Of a DNA stretch of 64,000 nucleotides, positions 11,776-23,529 are shown piece after piece. The DNA lies in IMG/VR virus record IMGVR_UViG_3300047483_000428; one strand, 5' to 3'. The notes beneath the pieces are model-generated. The model saw nothing but the letters and a program-made list of their open reading frames with translations, did not search any database and was not told the DNA's origin. The DNA is from a virus. Taxonomy: Duplodnaviria; Heunggongvirae; Uroviricota; Caudoviricetes. Position numbers and translations under genes: made by a program. Positions within the stretch are counted from its first letter, which is position 1. Each line of letters starts with the position of its first letter.

Positions 11776-11818
11776 TTTTACCTCATTTTATACATCATAT
11801 CAAAAAAACTCAAATAAG

Positions 11819-12010: not shown

Positions 12011-12023
12011 TTCCTTTCTCCTT

Positions 12024-12355: not shown

Positions 12356-12430
12356 TGGTGCGGTCTAATGGATTTGAACCATTGACCTCTGTCGAGTCAG
12401 GACAGCGTTCTACCCCTGAACTAAGGCCGC
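12356..12430 (-). tRNA. tRNA-Val (anticodon GAC), tentative
   Basis: GCGGCCT-TA-GTTC-AGGGGTA-GAAC-G-CTGTC-CTGACTC-GACAG-...-TTCAAAT-...-CCA; position 37 is a pyrimidine. Confidence 0.5.
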
Positions 12431-13152
12431 ATATCTATTTTCAAATTTTCTAACATGGTTCCGTTGAAATCAGCAAACTCAACCTTTTTTGTTGACAAGT
12501 ATTTTTCTGCGACTAATTTAAGATGGTCATAGTTATCTACTATTGTCTTTTTACTTGGTGCTTTTAATTTAGATATATCAAATGGTGTTAGATTTTCTAT
12601 TGGTGTATTACACAGTTCCATATTGGCAAAATCAACAACAGGATCAAAAGTAAGATTTTCCATATATACGATTTCATTATACTGAATATTAAAATCGTTT
12701 CTGCATATATATCCCAAATCCCATAACTGATTATCAACATACCATATAATCATATCATCTGTTATTTCAACTTTATCGAAGTTATGATATTCAACAAATT
12801 CTTTTTTTATATTTGCGATAGCAAGACTCAATGCACTTTGAAAGACATCTTTTCTTAATATGACAATCGTATAATATTTTTTTTGGTAATATCGATCTAT
12901 GACCCCATAGTCTTTCAAATCCACAATTTGAGTAATATGCGTTTTCATTACTACGGGGTCATGTCGTTCAATGAAATTCAGCCGACTATTAAAAAGATTT
13001 GCTATTTCAGACGAAGATGTTATTTCTGGTGGTATTAGAAATGGTTCATTTACACAAACATAATTTTTGTTCAGACTTGTCATGTGATGACAAATCATTC
13101 GTTGCATATATGTCGAACCATTTCTTGGATTACTTATTATTTGAATATTCAT
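12421..13152 (-). CDS. sulfotransferase-like protein (paralog A of 61575..62330)
   Basis: N-terminal ISNPRNGSTY resembles a PAPS 5'-phosphosulfate-binding loop. The shared block RKDVFQSALSLAIA aligns with paralog B's RKNVFDTVMSLALA. Confidence 0.4.
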   Translation of the reverse strand: MNIQIISNPRNGSTYMQRMICHHMTSLNKNYVCVNEPFLIPPEITSSSEIANLFNSRLNFIERHDPVVMKTHITQIVDLKDYGVIDRYYQKKYYTIVILRKDVFQSALSLAIANIKKEFVEYHNFDKVEITDDMIIWYVDNQLWDLGYICRNDFNIQYNEIVYMENLTFDPVVDFANMELCNTPIENLTPFDISKLKAPSKKTIVDNYDHLKLVAEKYLSTKKVEFADFNGTMLENLKIDMRP

Positions 13153-13374
13153 TGTGTTATTCCTTTGAATAATATTTATTCAATAGTGTGCTGCTACGCC
13201 AAAGGAAAACAGAGCCAAAAATATCATAACGAGCGATTATGTTTCTGTTACTGTCCGCATTTTCCCGCCCAGCCTCTCCCTATACCACTTGTTTTCACAG
13301 CCCGATATAGTCTCTTTGCGTTCACGGTGCTTCGTTCCACTCTTTAAAGGATGTGCTGCCTCTAAGCCAACCTC

Positions 13375-14091
13375 CTACTGAACTTTCAAGTAATCATATT
13401 CTCCGCTTAGTAACTTTTCAACAAACGCAGGAACCATTTCTGTTGCAACCCCATCCATACTTTCTGTAAACATATACTTGTTTTCAGAAGGATGTAGATT
13501 GATTTCAACAGTATGTGCTCTTGCTTTTTTCTTTGCAGTCTTCACAAATCCAGCCGCAGGATAAACTGTTCCAGATGTTCCAATCGCAACAAAGATGTCA
13601 CAACGTCTAAGTGCATCATCAATCACTTCCATGTAGTATGGAAATTCACCGAACCAAACGATGTTTGGGCGTAATGCAGGATGATAGCAATCATCACAAA
13701 TATCGTGTGTTTGCATCACTTCATTTGCAGTTGTAATGTCTCCACATTTTCTACAAATAGATTCGTGCAAACTTCCATGCATATGCAATACGTTTTTTGA
13801 CCCTGCTTTTTCATGTAAGTCATCTACGTTTTGAGTAATCAAAGTAACATCAAAATTTGGATTATGCTGTAATGCTGCTAAAGCATAATGCGCTTTGTTT
13901 GGTCTTGCATCGGCAACTTCTTTACGTCTATGGTTATAGAAGTCTAATACAAGTTTTGGATTTTTATAGAAACCTTCTGGGGTTGCTACATCAGTTACAT
14001 CATATTCATTCCAACGTCCATCGGTATCACGAAATGTTTTGATTCCGCTTTCTGCGGAAATTCCCGCCCCTGTCAATATGCATATTTTCAT
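13375..14091 (-). CDS. Sir2-family NAD-dependent protein deacetylase
   Basis: GAGISAESGIKTFR, QNVDDLH, a conserved HG and a CxxC zinc pair. Confidence 0.8.
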   Translation of the reverse strand: MKICILTGAGISAESGIKTFRDTDGRWNEYDVTDVATPEGFYKNPKLVLDFYNHRRKEVADARPNKAHYALAALQHNPNFDVTLITQNVDDLHEKAGSKNVLHMHGSLHESICRKCGDITTANEVMQTHDICDDCYHPALRPNIVWFGEFPYYMEVIDDALRRCDIFVAIGTSGTVYPAAGFVKTAKKKARAHTVEINLHPSENKYMFTESMDGVATEMVPAFVEKLLSGEYDYLKVQ

Positions 14092-14109
14092 TTCGTGTCC
14101 TTATAAGTT

Positions 14110-14185
14110 TGGTGGTGCTGGTAGGAATCGAACCTACGACAACCTAGTTATGAGCCAGGCACTCTACCGACTGAGTTACAGCACC
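14110..14185 (-). tRNA. tRNA with CAT anticodon (Met/fMet/Ile2-type), copy 1
   Basis: GGTGCTG-TA-ACTC-AGTCGGTA-GAGT-G-CCTGG-CTCATAA-CTAGG-TTGTC-GTAGG-TTCGATT-CCTAC-CAGCACC-A-CCA. Confidence 0.75.
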
Positions 14186-14205
14186 GAAAATTCTAGCCAG
14201 AAGCA

Positions 14206-14278
14206 AAACTGTTACGGGATTCGAACCCGCCTCTCCCCCGACTCCGCAGGAGTATCCTTTCCTATAGACGAAACAGTC
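14206..14278 (-). tRNA. degenerate tRNA-like element (possible pseudogene)
   Basis: Acceptor GACTGTT/AACAGTT and T-arm GGCGGG-TTCGAAT-CCCGT are present, but no canonical anticodon arm and no CCA. Confidence 0.25.
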
Positions 14279-14353
14279 TACCTATCAACACCTCTACGAC
14301 GATAATTGAAGATAGTCTTCTAGCTAAGGTAGTCGCAGCTACCTATTCTATGT

Positions 14354-14430
14354 TGGTGGCGGGTGAGGGATTTGAACCCCCGATCTTCTGGTTATGAGCC
14401 AGACGAGATAGACCACTTCTCCAACCCGCA
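14354..14430 (-). tRNA. tRNA with CAT anticodon, copy 2 (position 1 unpaired with 72, initiator-like feature)
   Basis: TGCGGGT-TG-GAGA-AGTGGTCTA-TCTC-G-TCTGG-CTCATAA-CCAGA-AGATC-GGGGG-TTCAAAT-CCCTC-ACCCGCC-A-CCA. Confidence 0.7.
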
Positions 14431-14565
14431 TCAATTGGAGGTCCGTTAGCCGATATAGAGTGGAACCTATATATCCGACCTTGCCGCTTTCGCAGCAAAT
14501 ATTTCACATCATTTTCTCTAATGAGAAGAACAGAGAGGTATGACACGGACCAACATCTTACTGTA

Positions 14566-14655
14566 TGGCGGTGTATACAGGATTCGAACCTGTGGCAGTC
14601 TTTCAACTGCGATGGTTTAGCAAACCACTGGTTTCAGCCACTCACCCAATACACC
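14566..14655 (-). tRNA. tRNA-Ser (anticodon GCT), type II
   Basis: GGTGTAT...GTGGT-TTGCTAA-ACCAT plus an 18 nt variable arm CGCAGTTGAAAGACTGCC, then ACAGG-TTCGAAT-CCTGT-ATACACC-G-CCA. Confidence 0.75.
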
Positions 14656-14656
14656 A

Positions 14657-14851
14657 TTATGTTTTCAGTTGTAAGTTTTTCTCTTTTATGAAGTTAGCAA
14701 TATCGCTTGGCCTAACACGAACTTCCCAATCGTCAATTACATATCCGATTTCGCGTTTGTCAAATGCTCCAACATATCTAATTTTGACATGTGAACGTCC
14801 AACAGAATATTCAAATGTTTGACCATTTACTTCAATCTTACGATAACTCAT
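14657..14851 (-). CDS. hypothetical small protein embedded in tRNA island
   Basis: 64 aa with a strong AAGGAGA RBS 7 nt upstream of the ATG. Confidence 0.5.
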   Translation of the reverse strand: MSYRKIEVNGQTFEYSVGRSHVKIRYVGAFDKREIGYVIDDWEVRVRPSDIANFIKEKNLQLKT

Positions 14852-14894
14852 TTATTTCTCCTTACGGGTTGCTAGGCACAGTGCCTATGGAATA

Positions 14895-14969
14895 TGGCGA
14901 GAGAGGTAGGAATCGAACCCACGACACCGAGTTTTGGAGACTCGTGTTCTACCACTGAACTACACTCCC
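14895..14969 (-). tRNA. tRNA-Trp (anticodon CCA)
   Basis: GGGAGTG-TA-GTTC-AGTGGTA-GAAC-A-CGAGT-CTCCAAA-ACTCG-GTGTC-GTGGG-TTCGATT-CCTAC-CTCTCTC-G-CCA. Confidence 0.75.
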
Positions 14970-15067
14970 ATTTATAGTGGTATCAATCCCCTTACCCCGA
15001 TGATGCTATCTTTGGACAACAGTATCGCTACTGCTTTTCTATGATGGATAGATTGATTACATATTTT

Positions 15068-15143
15068 TGGTGAACGGAGTGGGAATCGAACCCACGACAA
15101 CAGAATTAAAAGTTCCGTGCTCTACCAACTGAGCTACCCGTCC
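15068..15143 (-). tRNA. tRNA-Lys (anticodon TTT)
   Basis: GGACGGG-TA-GCTC-AGTTGGTA-GAGC-A-CGGAA-CTTTTAA-TTCTG-...-GTGGG-TTCGATT-CCCAC-TCCGTTC-A-CCA. Confidence 0.75.
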
Positions 15144-15248
15144 GTAAACTTTACTGGTTCTCACGTCTTGAACCGAATGCTGTCTAGTATTGCGACTCCG
15201 ACTCCCCGCTAATTGCAGGATGGAAGTATCTAGATCAAACACTTATAT

Positions 15249-15325
15249 TGGCACTTCCGACAGGATTCGAACCTGTAACCTTTCGCTTCGTAGGCGAATG
15301 CTCTATCCAGTTGAGCTACGGAAGT
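15249..15325 (-). tRNA. tRNA-Arg (anticodon ACG)
   Basis: ACTTCCG-TA-GCTC-AACTGGATA-GAGC-A-TTCGC-CTACGAA-GCGAA-...-ACAGG-TTCGAAT-CCTGT-CGGAAGT-G-CCA. Confidence 0.75.
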
Positions 15326-15429
15326 ATAAACAGTCGGAGTTTCTTTTAACGTGCTGCCGAATCAGACACAGGTATTTTTGGTGAGTGTTTATCCATCGCA
15401 GGAGGCGCTTCCGCTAGTGGTGTACGGCC

Positions 15430-15470
15430 ACATCAGACCTTGGACATTATGTGGCCACATAATGTCTTGT
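15430..15470. other. stable hairpin in tRNA-island spacer
   Basis: Inverted repeat GGCCACAT...ATGTGGCC (8 bp arms) between tRNA genes; possible processing or termination signal. Confidence 0.3.
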
Positions 15471-15488
15471 CACTTCACACTCATAGTT

Positions 15489-15572
15489 TGGTGGGTGTCC
15501 TTGGAATCGAACCAAGCATAGGTTTCCCTGACGGAGTTACAGTCCGCTGCCTCACCTTGAGGCGGCACACCC
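15489..15572 (-). tRNA. tRNA-Tyr (anticodon GTA), type II, copy 1
   Basis: GGGTGTG...GCGGA-CTGTAAC-TCCGT plus a long variable arm, then CTTGG-TTCGATT-CCAAG-GACACCC-A-CCA. Confidence 0.6.
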
Positions 15573-15767
15573 AAATGTTATGGTGCTGGATTTTTTCGGC
15601 GTCAACACTATGAGCGAGGAAGATAATCCCTCATGGGACTCTATCGCTTATCAACTGCTGACGTTTTGACTTTACGTGGATTAGAATAAACCGCTTCCAC
15701 AACCAGCTTAGATGACCGACCTGTAATATGGTGACTTGACCATATCAGGGAGCATCGGTCGTAATAT

Positions 15768-15856
15768 TGGAGGACGTGGTGTGATTCGAACACACGGTAT
15801 AACTTTCGTTAGCCGGATTTGCAATCCGGTGCCTTGAACCGCTCGGCCACACGTCC
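15768..15856 (-). tRNA. type II (long variable arm, Leu/Ser-like D-arm) tRNA whose anticodon loop reads TTGCAAA (GCA, Cys-type)
   Basis: GGACGTG-TG-GCC-GAGCGGTTCAA-GGC-A-CCGGA-TTGCAAA-TCCGG plus a 17 nt variable arm, then GTGTG-TTCGAAT-CACAC-CACGTCC-T-CCA. Confidence 0.55.
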
Positions 15857-15913
15857 ATTTTTATCTCTTGCATTATGTATAACCTGATTCGCATCAAGAG
15901 TCAACAACTATTT

Positions 15914-16003
15914 TGGCGGATGGTGAGGGATTCGAACCCCCGCTACACTTTCATGTAGCCGCCCTTTCCAGGGGCGGATAATAAACCACTCTAACAACCA
16001 TCC
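15914..16003 (-). tRNA. tRNA-Ser (anticodon GGA), type II
   Basis: GGATGGT...CGCCC-CTGGAAA-GGGCG plus variable arm GCTACATGAAAGTGTAGC, then GGGGG-TTCGAAT-CCCTC-ACCATCC-G-CCA. Confidence 0.7.
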
Positions 16004-16019
16004 ATTGTTTATGGTATTT

Positions 16020-16099
16020 TGGTCCTGCGGGAAGGATTCGAACCTTGCTCTCTCTGATCCACAATCAGATGTGCTAACCGTTAACACTACTTCGCAGGA
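16020..16099 (-). tRNA. tRNA-His (anticodon GTG), tentative
   Basis: Anticodon arm TCTGA-TTGTGGA-TCAGA, T-loop TTCGAAT and a CCA end are clear. The D-arm is irregular and no G-1 is encoded. Confidence 0.5.
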
Positions 16100-16106
16100 T
16101 TATTTT

Positions 16107-16184
<78 letters not shown>

Positions 16185-16195
16185 ACATTTTAGTG

Positions 16196-16314
16196 TGGTG
16201 CGTATGGCTGGACTTGAACCAGCATGTCACCATGACTCATTCAACCACCGTTGAACTTATGGATTTGAACCACCTTACGTCCGTCGACGTGCGTCTACCA
16301 TTTCGCCACATACG
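16196..16314 (-). tRNA. interrupted tRNA-like gene (about 119 nt) with Leu-type 5' half and approx. 50 nt insert before T-arm
   Basis: 5' GCGTATG-TG-GCG-AAATGGTAGA-CGC-A has a D-arm identical to element 8827..8983. 3' GCTGG-TTCAAGT-CCAGC-CATACGC-A-CCA. The acceptor halves pair perfectly; the middle carries two small hairpins instead of an anticodon arm. Confidence 0.3.
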
Positions 16315-16322
16315 CAAATATT

Positions 16323-16397
16323 TGGTTGCCCCTACTGGATTTGAACCAGTGACCTATCCCTTATCAGGGGATTGCTCTACCACTGAGCTAAGAGGCA
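16323..16397 (-). tRNA. tRNA-Ile (anticodon GAT)
   Basis: TGCCTCT-TA-GCTC-AGTGGTA-GAGC-A-ATCCC-CTGATAA-GGGAT-AGGTC-ACTGG-TTCAAAT-CCAGT-AGGGGCA-A-CCA. Confidence 0.75.
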
Positions 16398-16504
16398 TCA
16401 TTATTTGGAAGATAGTATCAAGGGTCGCAAATTCCTTGTGTAGCCCACTTCAAAGCAAACTTAATTACCCAAGCTACTGCGATAGAATACTATCATCAAA
16501 ATAA

Positions 16505-16590
16505 TGGTGTGGGGGGCTGGATTCGAACCAGCGTTGCTTTTCAGCGCCTGATTTACAGTCAGGTGGTTTCAACCGCTCACCCACCCCCAC
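16505..16590 (-). tRNA. tRNA-Tyr (anticodon GTA), type II, copy 2
   Basis: GTGGGGG-TG-GGTG-...-CCTGA-CTGTAAA-TCAGG plus variable arm CGCTGAAAAGCAACG, then CTGG-TTCGAAT-CCAG-CCCCCAC-A-CCA. Confidence 0.65.
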
Positions 16591-17010
16591 AAGAACACAG
16601 TGACCCTAACCGTTCTAACCGCTGAACTACATCGCAGTTTGAAGCCGCAATGGAGGGATTTGAACCCCCGACCTGTGTAGTATGTGTATATTTTCGTAAT
16701 GAGTGCTCTATCTGGATTCGAACCCTCGGACAGCATCAGCCCTACACCTACCGATCTGCTGACCGGAAAATAGGAGATCATTACATAGCCCGCACAACCA
16801 CGAATCGAACGTGTTTTCTTGACAACTGTCTATATAGACCAACTACCAGGTAGCTACAACTGGCTGTTGTGCGATTGTTGATGAGGTTTACCATGAGTCA
16901 TTTTAACTCATCAACAATATTTCTGTTTTCAACTGTAACAACTGTTGGACTCGAACCAACCCCACCTTGTCCTGAAACTACTCGTAGTTATACTACTTTC
17001 GCCCAAGGTT
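16591..17010 (-). other. block of degenerate/non-canonical tRNA-like elements (at least 4 T-arm-like and several D-arm/acceptor-like segments)
   Basis: T-loop-like GGGTTCGAATCC, GGGGGTTCAAATCCC, CACGTTCGATTCGTG and TTGGTTCGAGTCCAA occur with fitting acceptor pairs (e.g. GCACAAC/GTTGTGC), but anticodon arms could not be folded by eye. This block may hold the tRNAs missing from the hand-parsed set (Ala, Asn, Asp, Gln, Glu, Gly, Pro). Confidence 0.25.
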
Positions 17011-17121
17011 TATGACACCCTTGCACCGTATTGTTACATGTGAAAACAGAAATTATTTCATTCTGTTTTTTCTAAATTGTCAAAGAGCAGTGAAGCATCG
17101 CTTCGTTTTCTTACATTGTCT

Positions 17122-17149
17122 TTATATACTGATTCGCTTATAAAGTCAA
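17122..17149 (-). promoter_or_regulatory. promoter-like motif copy at the head of the tRNA array
   Basis: Plus strand reads tttatatactgattcgcttataaagtcaa, oriented to transcribe into the tRNA block at lower coordinates. Confidence 0.45.
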
Positions 17150-17154
17150 CATCT

Positions 17155-17196
17155 TTTTTCAATAAAAAACCCTCCGAAGATTTTCATCTTGGAGGG
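17155..17196 (-). terminator. rho-independent terminator downstream of the LamG-like gene
   Basis: Minus-strand hairpin CCCTCCAAGATGAAAATCTTCGGAGGG followed by TTTTTTATTG. Confidence 0.6.
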
Positions 17197-17365
17197 TTCC
17201 TGTGTTCGTTAGAACTGTATGGATATGTAAGTTACATTCCCATACCAAGACCCTCGCAGCCGCTATACATAAAGCGACCACACCAAGTGCGGCGAATAAT
17301 CATCTTATGTGTAGAAGCGGTTTTCATTGAAAGTCTTAGTCCTTTGTTTGTTTCTATTCTTTATT

Positions 17366-17392
17366 TATAGCACTATCAGAGTGATTCGTCAA
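17366..17392 (-). promoter_or_regulatory. promoter-like motif, variant spacing (TTGACG-N17-TATAAA)
   Basis: Revcomp reads gcTTGACGaatcactctgatagtgcTATAAAtaa, sigma70-like with the CGAATCAC block immediately after the -35. Confidence 0.45.
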
Positions 17393-17436
17393 GCATTATC
17401 TTCTATTTTATTTATCTTTTTTACATTTTTTCTGTA

Positions 17437-18519
17437 TTATAGACCGTAACGTGTCTTATGAGCATTGAAGTTTTGAAGTAGTTCTGTTGCACTCAGTGCT
17501 CTGTTATAGAACCGTATTCCGCCTAACTTTCCATCTAACCAAGCAAAACTGTTATTGGTGGAACCAAACTGCAAAAACTCTGGACTATCAAAAAGGGCAG
17601 TTGTTGACAAATCACTTCTTGTGAATTTCGCAACTCCATTCCTGTAACCAGTAAGTGATGCCCCGCTTCTGACTACTGCAACATGATACCAAGTTCCAGT
17701 GACCATTGGTTCAGAGTTAGACCATAATCCATGATATAACCAGTTTGTGCCATCAAAACTATATCTGAATGTTGGGCGATTTACCGCGCCAAACGCATCT
17801 ATATATAAACCATAACTTCTGTTTGAGGACGCACCTTCTTTTTCAAAAATGGTTTGGTTATTCACAGTATGTGCATCAATATTTACCCATACTTCCCAAG
17901 TGAAGTCGTTTGCGCCAACATCCAAAATGTCAGCTTGTGTATCACAAATAGCAGTAGCAGTAACATCAAAATCTAACACTCCACCATTTGAACTCAAATA
18001 AGTTACATCAGTGAGCGTTCCGTTGTATGCATTTGGTGAAAGGTCGTTCAACACAGTTCCAGTGCCAGGATAACTGTTGCCATCGCCAGGTTCGTAGTAA
18101 AGCTGTAGGCCACGTGTAGTCACAATATCGGTAGTTTCAGAAATGACTTCATATGACGCTGTTATTTGTATATCATTGGCAATACTTGCAAAAGAAACAA
18201 TCGCATCAGATTCTTCAAGGTAAATGCCAATTTCTTTAGTCATCAAAGAAACAGAGGAATTTGCAGGAACAGACACAGTGCTAAAAATAGAGTATGTAAT
18301 GCCATTTCTTGAAATTTGAACTGTAACAAGAGCAGGATATAGTCTATCCACGTTAGTCGCTACTATTTGATTTACTTTTATTAGCTTACCAGAACCAGCC
18401 TCATTGAACAAAATGACTTTTGGTGTTAGTTGTAGAACGGAGGAAACGCTACTTTCTCCGTCTATATTTAGACTATTTGCTATATTTGGTGCAGTCATAT
18501 TATACCTCGTGATCAACAT
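17437..18519 (-). CDS. concanavalin-A-like lectin/glucanase (LamG-like) domain protein
   Basis: C-terminal 200 aa carry a jelly-roll signature (WYHVAVV..SG....YRNG, LDG.L..IR.YNRALS). The N-terminal 160 aa are a different Ser/Thr-rich beta region. Confidence 0.55.
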   Translation of the reverse strand: MLITRYNMTAPNIANSLNIDGESSVSSVLQLTPKVILFNEAGSGKLIKVNQIVATNVDRLYPALVTVQISRNGITYSIFSTVSVPANSSVSLMTKEIGIYLEESDAIVSFASIANDIQITASYEVISETTDIVTTRGLQLYYEPGDGNSYPGTGTVLNDLSPNAYNGTLTDVTYLSSNGGVLDFDVTATAICDTQADILDVGANDFTWEVWVNIDAHTVNNQTIFEKEGASSNRSYGLYIDAFGAVNRPTFRYSFDGTNWLYHGLWSNSEPMVTGTWYHVAVVRSGASLTGYRNGVAKFTRSDLSTTALFDSPEFLQFGSTNNSFAWLDGKLGGIRFYNRALSATELLQNFNAHKTRYGL

Positions 18520-18574
18520 GTATACTTGATTTGAAGTTTTTTGTCAAGAATTATATGCTGTTTTATTTATCTAT

Positions 18575-19702
18575 TTATATTACGATTACGCCAAGTGGCG
18601 GAAACCCATTGAACGCAACCGTTGAGTATGTAGTTGTGTATGCTCCACAGTTCTTGATAAAGATTCTATCACCAGACTTCAAGTCAGTTGGAAACTTTAC
18701 TTTGTTAGTTTCATACAAAACATCAGCACTATCACAGGTAGGACCAGCAAGAACACAGGACATTGTATCATTGCTACGGCAATCTGGTGTCACAAACTGA
18801 TACTTGATTGCTTCTTCTGCGGTTTCTGCAAGGCCACTGAACTTACCAATATCCAAGTAAACCCAACGAACTTCGTCACCTTCATTTTTAGTTGACACAA
18901 GTAGAACATTGGCAGAAATCATACCAACATTTCCAACCATACCACGGCCAGGTTCTGCCATGATATACTCAACAACGCCAAACTTATCCGAAATCATCTG
19001 TGTGAGTAGTTGGCAGTATGCCTCTGAATCGGTGATAGGAACGCCATAGAAGGCAGGAAATCCACCACCTATGTTGAGTAGCTTCATATCAAAGCCATTG
19101 CTTACAGCGTCTTTCCAGACCTCTGAGGCATATGTCAGAGTGTCATCCCACATTTCTGGATGACGAGTTTGCGACCCAACATGGAAGCTAATACCGATTG
19201 GTTTCAGCCCAACAGATTTAGCATACTTCATGAGAGGAATAGCTTTTGATTGTCCGCATCCAAACTTACGACTCAATGGCCATTCCGCTTGTGAGTTTGT
19301 AACTAATAGGCGAATGAATACTTCACTGTTCGGTGCGTATTTTGCTATCTTGTCTAGTTCTTCTTCTGCATCTGCTGCATAAAGTTTGATACCTTGTGCA
19401 TACGCATATTCAAGGTCTGCTGGACGCTTTACCGTGTTTCCAAAACTAATGTGTTCTGGTTTAGCGCCAGCATATAGACATATGCGTATTTCTTCTGCGC
19501 TTGCTGCGTCAAAACGGCATCCAAGTTTGACGAGTTTGTTTATGATTTCCTTTTGTGGATTTGCTTTCACGGCATAGTGAATATGGGCATTTCCAAGTCC
19601 AGATTTCAATTTTTTGTAGTTTTCTTCTACCTTCTCCACATCTAGAACGAGGGTTGGATAGTCGAAAACATTCGAGCGAATGTAATCTTCTAGTTTATCC
19701 AT
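18575..19702 (-). CDS. PLP-dependent decarboxylase, Orn/DAP/Arg decarboxylase family (fold-type III)
   Basis: Family-2 PLP attachment signature HYAVKANPQKEIINKLVKLG, the Gly-rich motif IGGGFP and a C-terminal beta-domain. 375 aa, similar in size to CANSDC/NspC or short ODC. Confidence 0.75.
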   Translation of the reverse strand: MDKLEDYIRSNVFDYPTLVLDVEKVEENYKKLKSGLGNAHIHYAVKANPQKEIINKLVKLGCRFDAASAEEIRICLYAGAKPEHISFGNTVKRPADLEYAYAQGIKLYAADAEEELDKIAKYAPNSEVFIRLLVTNSQAEWPLSRKFGCGQSKAIPLMKYAKSVGLKPIGISFHVGSQTRHPEMWDDTLTYASEVWKDAVSNGFDMKLLNIGGGFPAFYGVPITDSEAYCQLLTQMISDKFGVVEYIMAEPGRGMVGNVGMISANVLLVSTKNEGDEVRWVYLDIGKFSGLAETAEEAIKYQFVTPDCRSNDTMSCVLAGPTCDSADVLYETNKVKFPTDLKSGDRIFIKNCGAYTTTYSTVAFNGFPPLGVIVI

Positions 19703-19747
19703 AGTGTTGTGACCCTTTCGTAAAACAACACAGTTATTTATAAGATA

Positions 19748-19837
19748 TGGCGGAAAGTGTGGGATTCGAACCCACGAGAGGTTTCACCCCCTGCTCGTTT
19801 AGTAGACGAGTGCCATCGACCGCTCGGCCAACTTTCC
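19748..19837 (-). tRNA. type II tRNA with anticodon loop CTACTAA (reads as ACT; atypical)
   Basis: GGAAAGT-TG-GCC-GAGCGGTCGAT-GGC-A-CTCGT-CTACTAA-ACGAG plus a long variable arm, then GTGGG-TTCGAAT-CCCAC-ACTTTCC-G-CCA. Ser/Leu-type architecture. Confidence 0.5.
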
Positions 19838-19840
19838 TTT

Positions 19841-20551
19841 TTATTTTCGTATCACTACCGTATATGAACCAAGTTCCGCATCTGGGTATGATGTCAGCAT
19901 GGGAACAATTTCAACATTCTTATACTTATCAAAAAAACTTTTGTCATAGAATGTAAGTGGAGTAGTTTTGTATTTCTCAGACAATTGCTCAAGTGTTAGA
20001 TTTTGTCTGTTTGCTTGCTTTTCCTTGAAAAGATTCTCTGTTTCTTTATCTTTCACATCGGATATCACAACGCCATATTTTGAGCAACGTAGCATTTCTT
20101 GAGTGACGTAATCAGCATCATCATATGATAGATATTGAAAAACTGAATTTGATATGAACCAATCAACTTTATTATCAGTTATCGGTATTTTTTTATCGGA
20201 AACAAAAAAGTGATGTGCTTGCATAGGAAACAGTATCATGCATTGGTCTATAAGTTGTTTGCTTATATCAATTCCATATACATCATTTCCATATGTGTGG
20301 TGAAGGTAATGTAATAATGCAGCGTTTCCGCATCCAAACTCAGCTATTGACGAATTTGTTTCAACAAAATCCATCATGTATTCTACATACGATTTGAATG
20401 TGTTTTTGTCGCAATCAAAAATGGCCTTGTGCAATTCAAAAGATGAATCAAATACCGATTTGTCAGTTGATACTAGTATTTTGTTTGTTTCTAAAACCCA
20501 TGAAAGATTTGGATTGTTAAATATTTTATTCCATGTTTTTACTTCGGTCAT
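19841..20551 (-). CDS. class I SAM-dependent methyltransferase
   Basis: Motif I IAEFGCGNAALLHYL and motif II VYGIDIS. Confidence 0.6.
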   Translation of the reverse strand: MTEVKTWNKIFNNPNLSWVLETNKILVSTDKSVFDSSFELHKAIFDCDKNTFKSYVEYMMDFVETNSSIAEFGCGNAALLHYLHHTYGNDVYGIDISKQLIDQCMILFPMQAHHFFVSDKKIPITDNKVDWFISNSVFQYLSYDDADYVTQEMLRCSKYGVVISDVKDKETENLFKEKQANRQNLTLEQLSEKYKTTPLTFYDKSFFDKYKNVEIVPMLTSYPDAELGSYTVVIRK

Positions 20552-20777
20552 TCGGAATTTCTTTTCTTACTTTCCAATAAACCCAACTCTCCATACAATG
20601 GTGGCTATCGTTAAATACCAAGTTTATAAACCATACGATGTTTGGTTTGTTAGTTCGTTTCCAATGCCAATTTCTTGCACTAAAAGTTTGATTGCTTTCT
20701 CCACCAATCACTACATTGAAGAGAATACTAAATGCGGTGCCGCATCTTTTTATATAGTTTGTTAATACATTTCTCAT
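20526..20777 (-). CDS. hypothetical protein
   Basis: 83 aa, Trp-rich ORF upstream of the methyltransferase. Confidence 0.3.
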   Translation of the reverse strand: MRNVLTNYIKRCGTAFSILFNVVIGGESNQTFSARNWHWKRTNKPNIVWFINLVFNDSHHCMESWVYWKVRKEIPNDRSKNME

Positions 20778-20954
20778 AAATGTATTTATATAAAACCCCC
20801 AACCAGATGCTTATGCGCGGGAACACGACATTTTACGGTATACCAGCATCATTCTCTGTATCAGAGAGGAACAGATTTTAAAGATTGTTAAGGATAAGTC
20901 CCATCCACAGCCGCATGGGTTAACTTACGTGGCAAATCCAGAGGGTTTTATATT

Positions 20955-21575
20955 TCAAATTTTACCATTCAACTCGTTAAACAAACACAAAGCGTATTCA
21001 TCGTGAGCATCTTTATTTGGATGTGATCCATCCAATGCAGGAGGATATTTTAATCTAATACTATCAAAATCAGATTTCAAAAATTCAAAACTCATCCAAT
21101 TTCCAACACTTTTTGAGGTAATATTAGAAATAGATAAAAGTGCGTGAAAGTTATTTACATCTTTTGACCATAAATATCGGTGTATATGGTCCGCTCTTAA
21201 ATTCAAATCTATTAAACCATCATATTCAGAATATAAGTTTTCATAATACCATTCATACTCTGAATATCTTGGTAGTATAAAAACATCATCCGAGTTTTCT
21301 CTAAAATATGTTGTTCTTGTAATAAAAGACCAATTTACTATAACAATATCATCTTGATGATAACCAAAGTCAACTACAGTTTTCCATATTTTTTTATTAC
21401 TAGCACCAGGAATACTTTTGTTTACTACTTCTTGTATTCCTAGTTTTTCAGCGAGAGTATTTGGCCAACCCATCTTACTTGGATACGATGTTATATATGG
21501 ATATTCATTGGTATGACAATCCTCTAACGAGTGTCCATATGTGTAACTGCAACCAAAAACAACTAATCTACTCAT
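20955..21575 (-). CDS. SGNH/GDSL-like hydrolase (tentative)
   Basis: N-terminal block VVFGCSYTYG is block I-like, a GASN block follows, and the C-terminal DGSHPNKDAH fits the DxxH catalytic pair. Confidence 0.45.
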   Translation of the reverse strand: MSRLVVFGCSYTYGHSLEDCHTNEYPYITSYPSKMGWPNTLAEKLGIQEVVNKSIPGASNKKIWKTVVDFGYHQDDIVIVNWSFITRTTYFRENSDDVFILPRYSEYEWYYENLYSEYDGLIDLNLRADHIHRYLWSKDVNNFHALLSISNITSKSVGNWMSFEFLKSDFDSIRLKYPPALDGSHPNKDAHDEYALCLFNELNGKI

Positions 21576-21586
21576 TTTTTAACCTC

Positions 21587-21683
21587 TGGTGTTGGAGAGG
21601 GATTTGAACCCTGCTTTGAACAATTTGTTTCATCCGCCTGCCCGAATATATGAAACAACATCAGCACACCATGCCAGTCCAAC
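21587..21683 (-). tRNA. tRNA-like element with canonical T-arm/acceptor but a long central hairpin instead of D/anticodon arms
   Basis: 3' AGGG-TTCAAAT-CCCT-CTCCAAC-A-CCA and 5' GTTGGAC pair; the centre is a 9 bp hairpin TTGTTTCAT...ATGAAACAA. Confidence 0.25.
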
Positions 21684-21893
21684 ATAATAAATCGTATGCA
21701 TCTTTATCCCTTCTACCCAGTCCACTGTAGGTGCGCCGTAGCTGGCCACACAGCTTCAACCTAGTCCAGTCTTCAACACTCACGTGCTACGATACACGGC
21801 ATTACTCTGCTTCGGGCTTTTTTTGCGGTTGCTACATCGCTTCTCATCATATGGGTTACCGCCCATACTATCTGTTGCTACACAGAACGTCTA

Positions 21894-21978
21894 TGGTGCC
21901 CGTAGAGGGACTTGAACCCCCACTCCGTTAGGAACCTGATTTTGAGTCAGGCGCGTCTACCAATTTCACCATACGGGC
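21894..21978 (-). tRNA. tRNA-Leu (anticodon CAA), type II
   Basis: GCCCGTA-TG-GTG-AAATTGGTAGA-CGC-G-CCTGA-CTCAAAA-TCAGG plus variable arm TTCCTAACGGAGTG, then GGGGG-TTCAAGT-CCCTC-TACGGGC-A-CCA. Confidence 0.75.
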
Positions 21979-21982
21979 AAAT

Positions 21983-22198
21983 TTATAAATCTTTTGTATT
22001 ATCTATCTCTCTACCAAGAGAAATATTTTTTTGTGCTCTTACTTTGTTGTTTGGCCAAGTCCAACACTGTCCATCATCATCACCAAAACAAACCCACATC
22101 AAGTTATGTTCTGGTCCATAATCTATCAAAACATGCGCCAATGCTGGACCTCTTGGCGTATAAAGAGGTATCGGTGGATTTAGCTGTAACATATTCAT
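21983..22198 (-). CDS. hypothetical protein
   Basis: 71 aa ORF. Confidence 0.35.
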   Translation of the reverse strand: MNMLQLNPPIPLYTPRGPALAHVLIDYGPEHNLMWVCFGDDDGQCWTWPNNKVRAQKNISLGREIDNTKDL

Positions 22199-22220
22199 GT
22201 AAGTTCTCCCCTCACACTAT

Positions 22221-22847
22221 TTATGCTACTGACGCCTCTTTCACAACTTTTGCAACTACTTTATACAAACCAGGATTTACAACTAACGCTTTTGGCATCA
22301 ACTCATGACGAATAAAGTTACGCATATACTTTGTATCGCTGTTACTTTTATCTTCAATCCATTCAATGCTTTTTCGTTCACACCAATCAACAAACTCATA
22401 CTTACGGTTCATACGAAATGGACGAATAACATTCATGTTGCGATATGGAATAACTTTACCAAAACCGTTCAATGACGACCAAATCCAAGTTTCAGTGCAA
22501 TCATCCAAGTGATGACAAGTTACAACTGGCACATCCATACTATAGAAGATTTTGTATCGCTCGTTTCTCCAATGTTCTTCCTGAGACGTATTTTTGGGAG
22601 GGTTTTCATCAGAAATACATGTCTTGATGAGACGTTCACCAAATACAGAATCAAGAAACTTTTCTGCTTCTCTACTTGTTTCAGTTCCGTGATTTACAAA
22701 TAGGGGACGGACTGTATGATTGCGACTTAGGAAGTCAACAACTGCCATACTATCAACGCCGCCACTACAAGCGACAATCACTTCACGTGGGATTTTACCT
22801 TGGATTTTGATCATATTCGAAACAGTCTTTTCCTGTTTGGTGTTCAA
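22221..22847 (-). CDS. PP-loop ATP pyrophosphatase (TilS-like tRNA(Ile)-lysidine synthetase or QueC-like)
   Basis: SGGVDS PP-loop in VIVACSGGVDSMAVVDFL followed by FVNHG. Context of four CAT-anticodon tRNAs favours TilS-like. Confidence 0.6.
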   Translation of the reverse strand: MNTKQEKTVSNMIKIQGKIPREVIVACSGGVDSMAVVDFLSRNHTVRPLFVNHGTETSREAEKFLDSVFGERLIKTCISDENPPKNTSQEEHWRNERYKIFYSMDVPVVTCHHLDDCTETWIWSSLNGFGKVIPYRNMNVIRPFRMNRKYEFVDWCERKSIEWIEDKSNSDTKYMRNFIRHELMPKALVVNPGLYKVVAKVVKEASVA

Positions 22848-23046
22848 ATGTTAGAAGGCCGAGTCGTGGAGACTTCTTATTCGCACATACACCATAATCA
22901 AATCCAAGTTCCCCGTCAAGAGGCAAAAACCATTTACATCCACAACTACAGTCTGGGTAATCTTGATTGTCGGCCCATCGTTTGACTTCTCCACCATAAT
23001 CAGTGTAATCAGATGGAAGGACTTTTATAAACGACATATCAATCAT
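22795..23046 (-). CDS. hypothetical Cys-containing small protein
   Basis: 83 aa with a CSCGCKW motif. Confidence 0.35.
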   Translation of the reverse strand: MIDMSFIKVLPSDYTDYGGEVKRWADNQDYPDCSCGCKWFLPLDGELGFDYGVCANKKSPRLGLLTFEHQTGKDCFEYDQNPR

Positions 23047-23064
23047 ATTCAGACCTTTTTATTT

Positions 23065-23141
23065 TGGTAGTCCCCCTCGGACTTGAACCGAGATATCCGT
23101 TCTTATGAGGAACGCTCATTCACCAATTATGATAGAGGACC
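23065..23141 (-). tRNA. tRNA with CAT anticodon, copy 4
   Basis: GGTCCTC-TA-TCAT-AATTGGTGA-ATGA-G-CGTTC-CTCATAA-GAACG-GATAT-CTCGG-TTCAAGT-CCGAG-GGGGACT-A-CCA. Confidence 0.7.
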
Positions 23142-23255
23142 GTAATTCTGTTCGGTTTGTCGCAGACTCCGAAAAACTGCTTTCAGTAACCTAGACGCAG
23201 AGCATCATCCCTGTAGGACCATTGTCCCGCTACCGCCATCGCATTACCTTCTAAA

Positions 23256-23332
23256 TGGTGCCCCCGGTGGGATTCGAACCCACACTGTAGAGATTTTAAG
23301 TCTCCTGCCTCCTGCCTTTGGGCTACGAGGGC
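23256..23332 (-). tRNA. type I tRNA with anticodon TAA (Leu-type anticodon on a short-variable-arm body)
   Basis: GCCCTCG-TA-GCC-...-GGC-A-GGAGA-CTTAAAA-TCTCT-ACAGT-GTGGG-TTCGAAT-CCCAC-CGGGGGC-A-CCA. Confidence 0.55.
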
Positions 23333-23452
23333 ATTTTATTACTTGTTCCGACACCAGCCCCCAAACCCGCCGTGTCAGTGACTACTTCCATATCCCAAAG
23401 AGAACAGAAAGGAAAAGGTTCTCAACGGTATACTAAGTATCTTTCCTAATAT

Positions 23453-23529
23453 TGGCGATTCCGGCAGGACTCGAACCTGCAACCCACAGCTTAGAAGGCT
23501 GTTGCTCTATCCAGTTGAGCTACGGAACC
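23453..23529 (-). tRNA. tRNA-Arg (anticodon TCT)
   Basis: GGTTCCG-TA-GCTC-AACTGGATA-GAGC-A-ACAGC-CTTCTAA-GCTGT-GGGTT-GCAGG-TTCGAGT-CCTGC-CGGAATC-G-CCA. Confidence 0.75.

Follow-up and report, generated by a model that had tools for sequence, protein, structure and literature searches.

A predicted ornithine(/lysine) decarboxylase of alphaproteobacterial type within a layered accessory block in the tRNA island of an uncultured large phage

Why would a phage carry genes with metabolic and carbohydrate-handling signatures among its tRNA genes? We addressed this question for positions 17437-21575 of a 64-kb stretch of DNA (hereafter, the window) from an uncultured phage with a genome of ~350 kb. 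As described in an earlier note on this DNA, four minus-strand ORFs are present here and are interleaved with tRNA genes according to ARAGORN and the Rfam tRNA model (Table 1); ARAGORN makes 23 tRNA calls spread over 8092-23529. The family calls of that note, i.e., a LamG lectin, a PLP-dependent decarboxylase, a SAM-dependent methyltransferase and an SGNH hydrolase, were all correct by Pfam or predicted structure. Its suggestion that these genes are morons inserted between tRNAs applies to LamG, which is found in none of the relatives and has a copy of a duplicated repeat on either side, but not to the other three. Rather, to judge from sequence comparisons, the segment is built of three layers: an ornithine decarboxylase (ODC) conserved throughout a phage clade, a p83-methyltransferase pair and an SGNH gene shared with relatives, and a strain-specific LamG gene. 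We consider it rather probable that these layers together form an accessory block within a tRNA/translation-support island.

Table 1. Positions of genes, tRNAs and repeats in and around the segment (window coordinates)
Feature	Position	Strand	Basis or remark
tRNA-Tyr	16505-16590		among the tRNA genes interleaved with the four ORFs
Promoter-like repeat, downstream (ancestral) copy: TTGACG, 17 nt, TATAAA	17380..17421	-	repeat family D1
LamG/ConA-like lectin-domain protein, 360-aa ORF	17437..18519	-	PF13385 (Laminin_G_3), 1.2e-21
Promoter-like repeat, upstream copy, 42 nt: AT-rich element, TTGACA, 17 nt, TATACA	18535..18576	-	repeat family D1
Predicted ornithine(/lysine) decarboxylase, PLP-dependent, alanine-racemase fold (fold type III), 375 aa	18575..19702	-	PF02784 and PF00278
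tRNA-Ser, anticodon ACU (A34)	19748..19837	-	ARAGORN; Rfam tRNA model, 54.7 bits
Class I SAM-dependent methyltransferase, 236 aa, motif I EFGCGNA	19841..20551	-	Methyltransf_11/25, ~5e-10
p83, 83 aa	20526..20777	-	phrog_3342; fifth small gene, same unit as the methyltransferase
Small SGNH/GDSL-fold esterase (DUF6071-like), 206 aa	20955..21575	-	AlphaFold2 and Foldseek; invariant residues
97-nt tRNA-like gene, ARAGORN label tRNA-Tyr(ATA)	21588..21684	-	ARAGORN only
tRNA-Leu	21894-21978		among the tRNA genes interleaved with the four ORFs
TilS-like tRNA(Ile)-lysidine synthetase, 208 aa	22221..22847	-	TIGR02432, 103.7 bits (cutoff 93.6); PF01171

Several lines of evidence identify the decarboxylase. 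It matches Orn_Arg_deC_N (7e-50) and Orn_DAP_Arg_deC (2e-13), and its top PDB matches are the lysine/ornithine decarboxylases of V. vulnificus and S. ruminantium (2plj and 5gjm; E ~1e-51 to 5e-51), followed by the arginine decarboxylase (ADC) of PBCV-1 (2nv9, 6e-41) and eukaryotic ODCs. The protein stays under the cutoff of every NCBIfam equivalog model; with scores of 23 bits for nspC (cutoff 409) and 159 bits for lysA (cutoff 298), we rejected both NspC and LysA as identities. Thus, of the two enzymes that the earlier note had proposed from size, a short ODC and a carboxynorspermidine decarboxylase, only the former stands. Using human ODC (sequence verified as identical to 2on3) as the reference, we mapped fourteen catalytic or PLP-binding positions, all of which are conserved (K46, D65, E71, R131, H174, S177, G212-214, E250, R253, C323, D324, Y355, F364, N365) and invariant across 30 phage-clade sequences. 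The PLP lysine, K46, lies within HYAVKANP, as had been predicted, and C323/D324 form the catalytic pair. Because every catalytic residue is present, the concern that the protein might be a pseudo-enzyme falls away. A function in polyamine synthesis is plausible. The equivalent of human D332 is E297; Glu occupies this position also in PBCV-1 ADC and in every alphaproteobacterial ODC that we aligned. Based on the PDB matches, the low nspC and lysA scores and its clustering with alphaproteobacterial ODCs, we assign the protein as an ODC-type, alphaproteobacterial-type ornithine(/lysine) decarboxylase with an intact active site.

The alphaproteobacterial ODCs of the alanine-racemase (AR) fold resemble the phage protein in length (373-381 aa), in full-length identity (48-62%), in the active-site set including the E297, S325 and F288 variants, and in the CDSAD and GAYTT(T/S)YS motifs. 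They differ in that the window ODC is phage-encoded, AT-rich like the phage (42% GC for the gene versus 40.6% for the window) and embedded in tRNA arrays rather than in a bacterial chromosomal context. Moreover, it belongs to a separate clade. A metagenomic search scored 8000 homologs at E<=1e-20, and the phage-only clade comprises thousands of these, at 58-99% identity; the best 120 of the 8000 are 62-99% identical, about 375 aa long and located on contigs of up to 374 kb, and the sampled contexts look phage-like. In neighbor-joining (NJ) analysis, the phage clade had bootstrap support of 100/100, while its grouping with Rhodobacterales had moderate support (59/100, NJ only); by identity, the closest genomes are those of Rhodobacterales (53-62%), followed by Rhizobiales (~48%). 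Homologs are thus widespread in related phages, a point on which the earlier note had proposed a check, and the sequence data indicate that the ODC, which matches the phage in composition and is conserved throughout its clade, is an old gene and not a recent moron.

Among 25 distinct phage contexts, the ODC lies inside or beside a tRNA array in 14, the nearest tRNA being no more than 250 bp away in 11 of these and no more than 2 kb away in the remaining three; in the other 11, there is no tRNA within 5 kb. The only genuine homolog from a cultured phage in INPHARED, the "ornithine/lysine decarboxylase" of Sinorhizobium phage Phosso (PV764938.1, 469 kb), is 46% identical to the window ODC over its full length. 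Like the window phage, Phosso is a jumbo phage with its ODC just downstream of a tRNA gene (tRNA-Gly, 179 bp); unlike the window ODC, the Phosso protein groups with Rhizobiales, the order of its host, with 100/100 support, and it therefore appears to represent a separate capture.

The second layer is confined to fewer phages. p83 overlaps the start of the methyltransferase gene by 26 nt, and the two are therefore probably translationally coupled. Both are found in the closest relative, L007 (p83 82%, methyltransferase 83% identity), and in L010 (61% and 57%), so that the methyltransferase is not a moron; by these comparisons, the pair is cargo confined to close relatives of the window. The methyltransferase matches phrog_4752 "tRNA methyltransferase" (1.5e-7) and has weak PDB profile matches to amine N-methyltransferases (E ~1e-3), and no match among INPHARED phages. 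The AlphaFold2 model of the SGNH protein (pLDDT 90.6) has as top Foldseek matches in the PDB GDSL lipolytic, TesA and carbohydrate-esterase (CE2) structures only, and the catalytic set S10, G57, N60, D182 and H185 is invariant in 34 homologs. By inspection, this small esterase has no signal peptide, its N-terminus running directly into the first catalytic strand, and the proposed action on surface glycans finds no support; it and the methyltransferase are both probably cytoplasmic. The SGNH gene is present at 55% in L010-L012 and is cleanly deleted in L007, between TAAAA microrepeats. Thus, it appears to be a variable gene shared with more distant relatives and lost by the closest one rather than a moron.

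LamG has a different history. Its probable true start is Met8 (window position 18498), 8 nt downstream of a GAGG Shine-Dalgarno sequence, which gives 353 aa as in the JGI gene call. In the predicted structure, the C-terminal ~230 aa form a lectin jelly-roll and the N-terminal ~130 aa a poorly modelled beta-rich domain common only to P0127; Foldseek matches are to ConA-like lectin domains and a cyanopodophage tailspike. The closest homologs lie in tail/structural modules of unrelated phages, among them tandem 235-aa LamG proteins of siphophage tail modules from metagenomes that are 62-66% identical to the C-terminal ~230 aa, and homologs from cultured phages carry annotations as baseplate or virion structural proteins, e.g., the virion structural protein of the T4-like cyanophage S-PM2 (~30% identity to the C-terminus). 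For LamG, homology to structural or tail proteins, which the earlier note had held against a cargo reading, is therefore what we found. All of these proteins have the same ConA-like jelly-roll fold; however, the window LamG carries the additional N-terminal domain and lies in an early-type accessory/tRNA region instead of a structural module.

By blastn against L007 and L010, LamG is missing from L007 and L010-L012 as a clean gene-sized indel. It is bracketed by two copies of a promoter-like repeat that are 81% identical. The upstream copy immediately precedes LamG and overlaps the ODC stop codon; the downstream copy heads a 31-aa ORF, followed by the distal tRNA array. In the alignment, L007 and L010 carry a single copy, at the conserved place directly after the ODC stop. 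The promoter-like motif occurs twice in the window against 0.03 expected occurrences; a strict sigma-70 consensus scan lists neither copy, because the -10 element ends in A. The two copies match a consensus only. These comparisons indicate that LamG is a strain-specific, recent single-gene gain. We suggest that a virion-type lectin module was copied from the structural region of another phage and inserted by recombination at the repeat, so that LamG would now have its own copy of the putative promoter while the downstream genes would keep theirs. Promoter-cassette-mediated gene shuffling in T4-type phages (PeSL elements) and the classical lambdoid morons are precedents. LamG may be analogous to these in being a lone gene that close relatives lack and that lies between two promoter-like copies; unlike PeSL elements, its repeat occurs only twice in the window.

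The RNA genes around the ORFs are conserved among relatives. The tRNA-Ser(ACU) gene, separated by 3 nt from the methyltransferase and by 45 nt from the ODC, is also found in L007, L010 and L005. The 97-nt tRNA-like gene lies 12 nt upstream of the SGNH start, at the edge of the segment, and has no match to the Rfam tRNA model at E<=0.01; it is kept in the same three phages, with compensatory changes in 8 of 29 predicted pairs. The TilS-like protein, likewise conserved in these phages, consists of the N-terminal PP-loop domain alone, without the C-terminal domains. Other products of the island are a CCA-adding enzyme, an RNA ligase and Sir2.

We infer from homology that ornithine is the substrate of the decarboxylase. 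That it acts instead on another basic amino acid, converting arginine to agmatine or mainly lysine to cadaverine, is unlikely in our view. Within the alphaproteobacterial ODC family in its wider sense, some enzymes have changed their substrate to arginine, and the Pelagibacter and Fonsibacter "ODCs" are ADCs, their AR-fold homologs decarboxylating arginine only (PMC9992855); E297 as in PBCV-1 ADC, the bifunctional nature of the top PDB matches and the missing equivalog assignment would fit such a switch. However, E297 and S325 are common to all Rhizobiales and Rhodobacterales ODC homologs aligned, and the length of 375 aa is that of these enzymes, as opposed to 394-396 aa for Pelagibacterales ADCs; a marine 394-aa cluster (P0248), a candidate ADC of the Pelagibacterales type, is just 44% identical and branches further away. 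Moreover, Odc2 of S. meliloti, a characterised L/ODC of the same group, has an ODC activity 10-fold above its LDC activity and makes ~90% of cellular putrescine (PMC10385936, a review); the Ensifer locus in our comparison is only a candidate Odc2 ortholog. As for arginine, no agmatine-processing gene (AIH, NCPAH or agmatinase) was seen in the 64-kb window. A dead regulatory homolog of the antizyme-inhibitor kind, or a decaying pseudogene, is so improbable that the mapped residues in effect refute it. The reading frame is complete, with conservation across thousands of homologs, and nothing specific favours this idea beyond the NCBIfam scores under the cutoffs.

Tentatively, the four genes could also be unrelated cargo in a recombination-permissive tRNA region, their position having no functional meaning and the decarboxylase topping up polyamines or altering host metabolism independently of translation. 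Linkage to tRNAs need not imply functional coupling, since accessory genes tend to gather in tRNA regions in general. The gene-sized indels of LamG and SGNH between close relatives point this way, as do the completely different genes flanking the ODC across its clade, the 11 contexts distant from any tRNA, and the methyltransferase and SGNH genes, which are unlinked to the ODC outside the close relatives of the window. On the other hand, proximity within 250 bp recurs in 11 independent contexts, the ODC is the sole protein gene inside dense tRNA arrays in L002/L102, L106, L099 and L100, a tRNA gene likewise precedes the Phosso ODC, which was acquired independently, and other genes of the island code for several tRNA-related enzymes (TilS, CCA-adding enzyme, RNA ligase). 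There is a slim chance that the diamine feeds nucleic-acid modification rather than the free polyamine pool, e.g., a DNA hypermodification of the putrescinyl-thymine type or a wobble cytidine to which the neighbouring mini-TilS would attach the diamine. The window encodes a radical SAM enzyme, a C5 DNA methylase and two further methyltransferases besides the truncated TilS and four tRNA(CAU) genes, TilS and ODC are co-located in L005/L127 as well, and archaeal TiaS uses decarboxylated arginine for an analogous modification. Yet, the 64-kb window yielded neither a gene of a hydroxymethyl-pyrimidine pathway nor an amino-group transferase, TilS accompanies the ODC in the window lineage and in L005-type phages only, and the ODC, its active site unaltered, is a conventional decarboxylase of free amino acids.

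Our preferred explanation is that the ODC is the oldest gene of the segment, and the one whose function is clearest, and that an ancestor of the large phage clade captured it long ago from an alphaproteobacterium, its nearest cellular kin being the ODCs of Rhodobacterales. During infection, the enzyme would most likely convert L-ornithine to putrescine, possibly with a minor activity on L-lysine. A Pfam scan of 30 larger ORFs in the window, which covers 64 kb of the ~350-kb genome, revealed no spermidine or homospermidine synthase, AdoMetDC or arginase; the host could provide the enzymes that turn putrescine into spermidine or homospermidine. Through their binding to tRNA and ribosomes, polyamines would assist translation that uses the tRNAs of the phage itself, with which the ODC may be co-expressed to the benefit of the infection; they would also offset the charge of a very large genome while it is replicated and packaged. 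The relation of polyamines to tRNA and translation and the spermidine dependence of phage replication are covered by Li et al. (2023, PNAS; PMC9992855), who also describe AR-fold ODCs of giant eukaryotic viruses and the ODC-derived ADC of PBCV-1. Like the window phage, these viruses encode the first step of putrescine synthesis, with enzymes of the same fold; the window clade is of bacterial (alphaproteobacterial) rather than eukaryotic origin. The phage decarboxylases in that work are pyruvoyl-dependent ODC/ADC derived from AdoMetDC, with a fold unrelated to that of the window ODC, and no likely AR-fold ODC homologs, only DAPDC, were reported from phage genomes. The large phage-specific clade is an ODC type that this survey did not find in phages, and its likeliest role, held with the same moderate confidence as the explanation as a whole, would be to supply putrescine for translation and for the neutralisation of nucleic-acid charge during infection.

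Here, we identify the PLP decarboxylase encoded in the tRNA region of this uncultured phage as a probable alanine-racemase-fold (AR-fold) ornithine decarboxylase (ODC). The earlier note had read its gene, together with those for a LamG lectin-like protein, a methyltransferase and an SGNH-like hydrolase, as morons inside a tRNA island. The observation was confirmed and the interpretation held in part: all four ORFs lie on the minus strand, their coordinates exactly as claimed, and tRNA genes lie between them. ARAGORN makes 23 tRNA calls in 8092-23529, throughout on the minus strand, and the Rfam tRNA model supports most of these. The spacers measure 45 nt between the ODC gene and tRNA-Ser(ACU), 3 nt between this tRNA and the methyltransferase gene, and 12 nt between the SGNH gene and a 97-nt tRNA-like gene.

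Features of the tRNA region and of the accessory genes discussed in the text
Feature	Coordinates	Strand	Product or length	Remark
Radical SAM enzyme	3392-4522	-		
FtsJ-like methyltransferase	10263-10904	-		
C5 DNA methylase	10882-11775	-		
Sir2	13375-14091	-		
tRNA-Tyr	16505-16590	-		ARAGORN
LamG ORF	17437-18519	-	360 aa	
ODC ORF	18575-19702	-	375 aa	
tRNA-Ser(ACU)	19748-19837	-		ARAGORN
Methyltransferase ORF	19841-20551	-	236 aa	
p83 ORF	20526-20777	-	83 aa	phrog_3342; 26-nt overlap with methyltransferase start
SGNH ORF	20955-21575	-	206 aa	
tRNA-like gene	21588-21684	-	97 nt	ARAGORN
tRNA-Leu	21894-21978	-		ARAGORN
TilS-like PP-loop protein, N-terminal domain only	22221-22847	-	208 aa	TIGR02432, 103.7 bits, above cutoff
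CCA-adding enzyme	26723-28090	-		
GreA-like factor	34668-35216	-		
RNA ligase	48542-49600	-		
SbmA/BacA-family transporter	53467-54531	-		

Several lines of evidence point to ODC among the subfamilies that had been left open, i.e., NspC, a short ODC or LysA. First, Pfam finds PF02784 (Orn_Arg_deC_N; 7e-50, residues 23-256) and PF00278 (Orn_DAP_Arg_deC; 2e-13), in line with an N-terminal TIM-barrel PLP-binding domain and a C-terminal beta-sheet domain, and the protein aligns over its full length with 2plj and 5gjm. Second, these two lysine/ornithine decarboxylases, from Vibrio vulnificus (2plj, 4e-51) and Selenomonas ruminantium (5gjm, 6e-51), lead the PDB sequence search, followed by the PBCV-1 arginine decarboxylase (6e-41) and eukaryotic ODCs (about 1e-36), while DAP decarboxylases appear only at 1e-27 or weaker. 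Third, NspC/CANSDC and LysA were both rejected: TIGR01047 reaches 23.4 bits where its cutoff is 409 and covers residues 206-367 only, and TIGR01048 stops at 158.7 bits, its cutoff being 297.9, with the tree placing the protein among ODCs. No NCBIfam equivalog model reaches its cutoff on this protein.

The active site is intact. Based on an alignment to human ODC, the sequence of which was checked as identical to 2on3, human K69, D88, E94, R154, H197, S200 and G235-237 correspond to K46, D65, E71, R131, H174, S177 and G212-214 of the phage protein, and human E274, R277, C360, D361, Y389, F397 and N398 to E250, R253, C323, D324, Y355, F364 and N365. In AR-fold decarboxylases, the catalytic Cys-Asp pair (human C360/D361) is contributed across the dimer interface; in the phage protein this pair, C323/D324, lies within GPTCDSADV. 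All mapped catalytic and PLP positions, including the PLP lysine, are kept and are invariant among 30 members of the phage clade. A pseudo-enzyme reading is thereby rejected.

The gene has a wide distribution. In a metagenomic collection of 5.8 billion proteins, 8000 homologs scored at E<=1e-20; the best 120 of these 8000 have 62-99% identity, nearly all are 375-377 aa long, and several are on contigs of 250-375 kb. The six contexts that were looked up are phage-like with dense small ORFs, and contain genes for ClpP, a CCA-adding enzyme, DNA ligase, RNR, QueC-like proteins and SegE-type homing endonucleases. The closest relative, with 94% ODC identity, is the 356-kb NCBI contig CACUWB010000001.1 of GCA_902725615.1, and 44 related viral loci are present in IMG/VR. 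Among the cultured phages in INPHARED, the sole genuine homolog is the 'ornithine/lysine decarboxylase' of the 469-kb Sinorhizobium phage Phosso (46% identity); of the 13 tblastn matches, all but that in Phosso were rejected, being lysA genes of bacterial type on records that are contaminants or lack annotation. INPHARED gave no megablast match to 17000-22000, and a neighbouring 550-aa gene gave marginal matches only; the phage has no cultured close relative. Two 'viral' contigs of IMG/VR have a tmRNA gene a few kb away from the ODC homolog (L125, 8209-8622; L142, 9428-9780, with an ODC identity of just 32%), and these contigs may be bacterial or prophage-flanking instead of phage.

The nearest cellular ODCs, using one genome per GTDB species, are from Rhodobacterales (53-62%), then from Rhizobiales and other Alphaproteobacteria (about 47-50%). 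In a neighbor-joining tree with 100 bootstraps, the phage/metagenome clade and the Rhodobacterales are each monophyletic (100/100), and a group made up of these two plus two other representatives has 59/100 support. The enzyme of Phosso clusters with Rhizobiales, the order of the Phosso host (100/100), indicating a separate capture. Typical Rhodobacterales genomes are far richer in GC than the ODC gene, which at 42% (GC3 35%) resembles the window (40.6%). On these grounds, the gene is a long-standing resident of this phage clade.

The ODC gene is frequently, although not universally, associated with tRNA genes, and this association is suggestive. In the lineage of the window, the gene has tRNA-Ser(ACU) on one side and the distal tRNA array on the other. 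Several divergent clade members, with 58-65% ODC identity and otherwise unrelated genes, have it as the sole protein gene in a dense tRNA array: in L002/L102 a tRNA-Thr ends 24 nt before it and a tRNA-Ile starts 9 nt after it, and in L106 tRNAs lie 65 nt before and 3 nt after it. A tRNA is within 250 bp also in L099, L100, L004, L114, the L116 group, L123, L125 and L134, and within 2 kb in L111, L115/L122 and L127. In total, 14 of the 25 distinct contexts are tRNA-linked; in the IMG/VR scan, the 11 others have no tRNA inside 5 kb, ruling out universal adjacency. The independently acquired Phosso gene lies 179 nt after a tRNA-Gly.

Wobble-A tRNAs are common in the clade: tRNA-Ser(ACU) is kept in the window, in the closest relative L007, in the more distant L010 and in L005, and other members (L002/L102, L099, L106, L127) have tRNA-Thr(AGU) and tRNA-Ser(AGA). 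In bacterial tRNAs, A34 is as a general rule restricted to tRNA-Arg(ACG). Potential amber suppressors with a CUA anticodon, labelled 'Pyl' by ARAGORN, are present in L106 (1600-1674), L116/L119/L120/L133 (1276-1351) and L127 (8906-8980, equivalent to L005 11906-11980); the 23 tRNA calls of the window include none. The 97-nt gene is a conserved tRNA-like RNA, also present in L007 (8653-8749), L010 (7681-7777) and L005 (6768-6863). ARAGORN assigns it an A34 anticodon that differs by relative (ATA, ACA, AAA), and it escapes the Rfam tRNA model. In the structure predicted by RNAalifold, a 7-bp acceptor stem and a D-like arm are accompanied by a canonical T arm, an encoded ACACCA 3' end and a long bipartite 'anticodon' arm surrounding the conserved GGGCAGGCGG, with compensatory changes in 8 of 29 pairs.

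The moron reading fits LamG alone, which is absent at this locus from L007-L012, where the flanks are 88-94% identical, and fails for the ODC and methyltransferase genes, which relatives conserve. In blastn of the window against L007, flanks of 87-94% identity are interrupted by two clean gene-sized gaps. One of them, at 17432-18539, corresponds to LamG, which is missing from L007 and L010-L012 and is seen only on contigs with a 100% identical protein (P0121); the two for which DNA is available, L013 and L014, appear to be the same phage. On either side of LamG lies a copy of a 42-nt element (18535-18576 and 17380-17421, 81% identical) that on the coding strand reads as an AT-rich stretch, TTGAC(A/G), 17 nt and TATA(C/A)A. 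Relatives have one copy, right after the ODC stop, and the motif occurs twice in the window against 0.03 expected. A strict sigma-70 consensus scan gave no more sites than shuffled sequence and did not list the two repeats, and no clear terminator was found after LamG and before the second copy. The arrangement resembles promoter-cassette-mediated gene insertion, in which the insert gains a promoter-like copy and the downstream unit keeps one.

For LamG, the earlier note had suggested a possible action on surface glycans. Pfam detects PF13385 (Laminin_G_3; 1.2e-21, 77.9 bits against a cutoff of 27.6, residues 200-346), and the AlphaFold2 model is confident for residues ~130-360 and poor for residues 1-130 (pLDDT 29-73). 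Foldseek matches (1e-11 to 1e-8) include a trans-sialidase lectin domain, carbohydrate-binding domain 4 of the arabinanase AbnA, neurotoxin Hc and the tailspike of cyanopodophage Pan3; with Pfam, they describe a beta-sandwich jelly-roll of the ConA-like lectin type, from which we infer a putative carbohydrate-binding role. A PDB sequence search with the protein gave nothing useful. Translation most likely starts at Met8 (18498), which has a GAGG Shine-Dalgarno sequence. The N-terminal domain (1-130) has a single full-length homolog, P0127. The C-terminal ~230 aa have 62-66% identity to stand-alone 235-aa proteins, which an unrelated smaller phage carries as three LamG-like ORFs in tandem within its structural region; adjoining genes there encode a T5-type small terminase, tail terminators and a chaperone for tail assembly. 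These ORFs (235, 225 and 235 aa) follow a 592-aa protein (L015 8001-10086; L016 4196-6281), and the first of them, 63% identical to the C-terminal domain of LamG, is a plausible donor type. Cultured-phage homologs (~30% identity) are annotated as 'virion structural protein' in S-PM2, as 'structural protein' in a Flavobacterium phage and as 'baseplate wedge subunit'. By the refuting criterion of the earlier note (homologs that are structural or tail proteins), LamG is argued to be a virion or adhesion-type module and not a metabolic gene. We interpret the gene as a virion-type lectin module that was recently inserted in moron-like fashion, and as such it offers a clean small case in which one gene was gained where a promoter-like element is duplicated.

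The second gap in L007 spans the SGNH coding sequence (20953-21574), between TAAAA microrepeats. The gene is present in the more distant L010-L012 (55% protein identity), indicating that L007 lost it. The 'SGNH-like' call proved right because residue conservation, the Pfam domains of homologs and fold matches agree. S10 in G8-C9-S10, which replaces the GDS motif, G57, N60, D182 and H185 (DxxH block V) are invariant among 34 homologs, some of which carry the Lipase_GDSL domains PF13472/PF00657; the protein itself has a DUF6071 match alone, below threshold, and a PDB sequence search gave nothing useful. Its AlphaFold2 model (pLDDT 90.6) has a three-layer alpha/beta/alpha flavodoxin-like fold, and the 25 best Foldseek PDB matches are GDSL lipolytic proteins (including one from Desulfitobacterium), E. 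coli TesA and CE2/acetyl-xylan esterases, with E down to 5e-7 and modest TM-scores of 0.5-0.6. The methyltransferase has generic class I SAM domains (Methyltransf_11/25, about 5e-10) and a glycine-rich motif I, EFGCGNA, that is invariant in three orthologs. Matches for its substrate class diverge between a phrog 'tRNA methyltransferase' (1.5e-7) and weak PDB amine N-methyltransferases; PDB searches gave nothing useful with the single sequence and marginal matches only with a three-sequence profile. Both this protein and the SGNH esterase are predicted to be real enzymes. The methyltransferase and p83 are 83% and 82% identical in L007, and 57% and 61% in L010, and are not detectable beside the ODC gene in other clade members. 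A functional ODC-methyltransferase pair as a rule was rejected, the methyltransferase being confined to close relatives of the window and one near the ODC gene of L101 being not detectably homologous.

The window as a whole, in which 30 larger ORFs were scanned, is rich in accessory genes. It also encodes a CCA-adding enzyme with an HD domain, an Rnl-type RNA ligase, Sir2, a radical SAM enzyme, a C5 DNA methylase next to an FtsJ-like methyltransferase, a GreA-like transcript cleavage factor, an SbmA/BacA-family inner-membrane transporter, ClpP, IMPDH/GMP reductase, an SPFH protein, a subtilase and two metallophosphoesterases. Among these 30 ORFs, no spermidine/homospermidine synthase, AdoMetDC, arginase or agmatine-processing enzyme is recognizable. 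The TilS-like protein, which is without the C-terminal domains of E. coli-type TilS, is kept in L007, L010 and L005, and four tRNA(CAU) genes lie near its gene. Between LamG and tRNA-Tyr, 846 nt (16591-17436, minus strand) have no ORF of at least 50 aa on the minus strand and are conserved as well as or better than adjoining coding DNA (92% to L007; for 17035-17421, 89% to L010 versus 70% for the ODC gene). Within it lie a promoter-like repeat and a Cys-containing ORF of 31 aa (17232-17327, MKTASTHKMIIRRTWCGRFMYSGCEGLGMGM), which is conserved and was called in L008 as well. The stretch further contains a terminator-like hairpin that is strong (17161-17198) and another promoter-like site (17120-17149). 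Of three motifs that resemble a T arm (16944-16957, 16711-16724, 16652-16666), none is called as a tRNA, and Rfam gives a weak Y-RNA-like (YrlA) match (16591-16690; 30 bits, E 0.002).

These comparisons show an ODC-type gene that is intact, conserved across the clade and often placed in tRNA arrays, with cargo around it that varies. We suggest that during infection the enzyme would convert L-ornithine into putrescine, which host enzymes may extend, and that the benefit would lie in translation and in the handling of a genome of ~350 kb. Both tRNA and ribosomes are bound by polyamines, and several phages need spermidine for normal replication (PMC9992855). The main caveat on the substrate comes from Pelagibacter and Fonsibacter, the AR-fold 'ODCs' of which are actually arginine decarboxylases (Li et al. 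2023, PMC9992855). Human D332 makes contact with the substrate's distal amine; the phage protein has a Glu (E297) at this position, as do the PBCV-1 arginine decarboxylase and every Rhodobacterales and Rhizobiales ODC homolog aligned. In S. meliloti, according to a review, Odc2 gives about 90% of the cellular putrescine and its ODC activity exceeds the LDC activity ten-fold (PMC10385936). We consider arginine or lysine an unlikely substrate in place of ornithine.

Supply of putrescine for infection is also to be weighed against readings centered on the tRNA genes. The ODC gene and its neighbors could be pure hot-spot cargo of the tRNA region, as the gain of LamG and the loss of SGNH would illustrate; we regard this as possible but rather doubtful. 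Use of the diamine product for nucleic-acid modification would find candidate modifying enzymes in the window; we hold this to be very improbable. Still less probable is that the enzyme is a working part of a phage tRNA module and not a general polyamine booster, with a diamine (putrescine or cadaverine) needed specifically for phage tRNA function or modification. If true, the diamine could, for example, be the amine donor for the PP-loop-only mini-TilS on one of the four tRNA(CAU), so that a bacterial virus would have a wobble cytidine conjugated to a diamine, similar to agmatidine, and the conserved placement of the gene in tRNA arrays of many divergent phages would reflect that coupling.

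Polyamine synthesis is already established for giant eukaryotic viruses and, via AdoMetDC-derived pyruvoyl enzymes, for phages. The systematic survey of virus polyamine enzymes by Li et al. 2023 (PMC9992855) found no likely AR-fold ODC homologs in phage genomes, DAP decarboxylases only, and the phage decarboxylases characterized there are pyruvoyl enzymes derived from AdoMetDC. Virus-encoded polyamine synthesis is a known kind of function, of which the decarboxylase is a new member; its fold class is unreported for phages in the main survey, and our literature search found no report of AR-fold ODCs in jumbo phages. The distribution of the gene is unexpectedly wide: an AR-fold ODC with an intact active site stands here for a large phage-specific clade with thousands of metagenomic homologs, many on 300-375-kb contigs. 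This clade broadens the known routes of phage control over host polyamines and offers a concrete, testable connection of polyamine supply to the translation apparatus that very large phages encode themselves.
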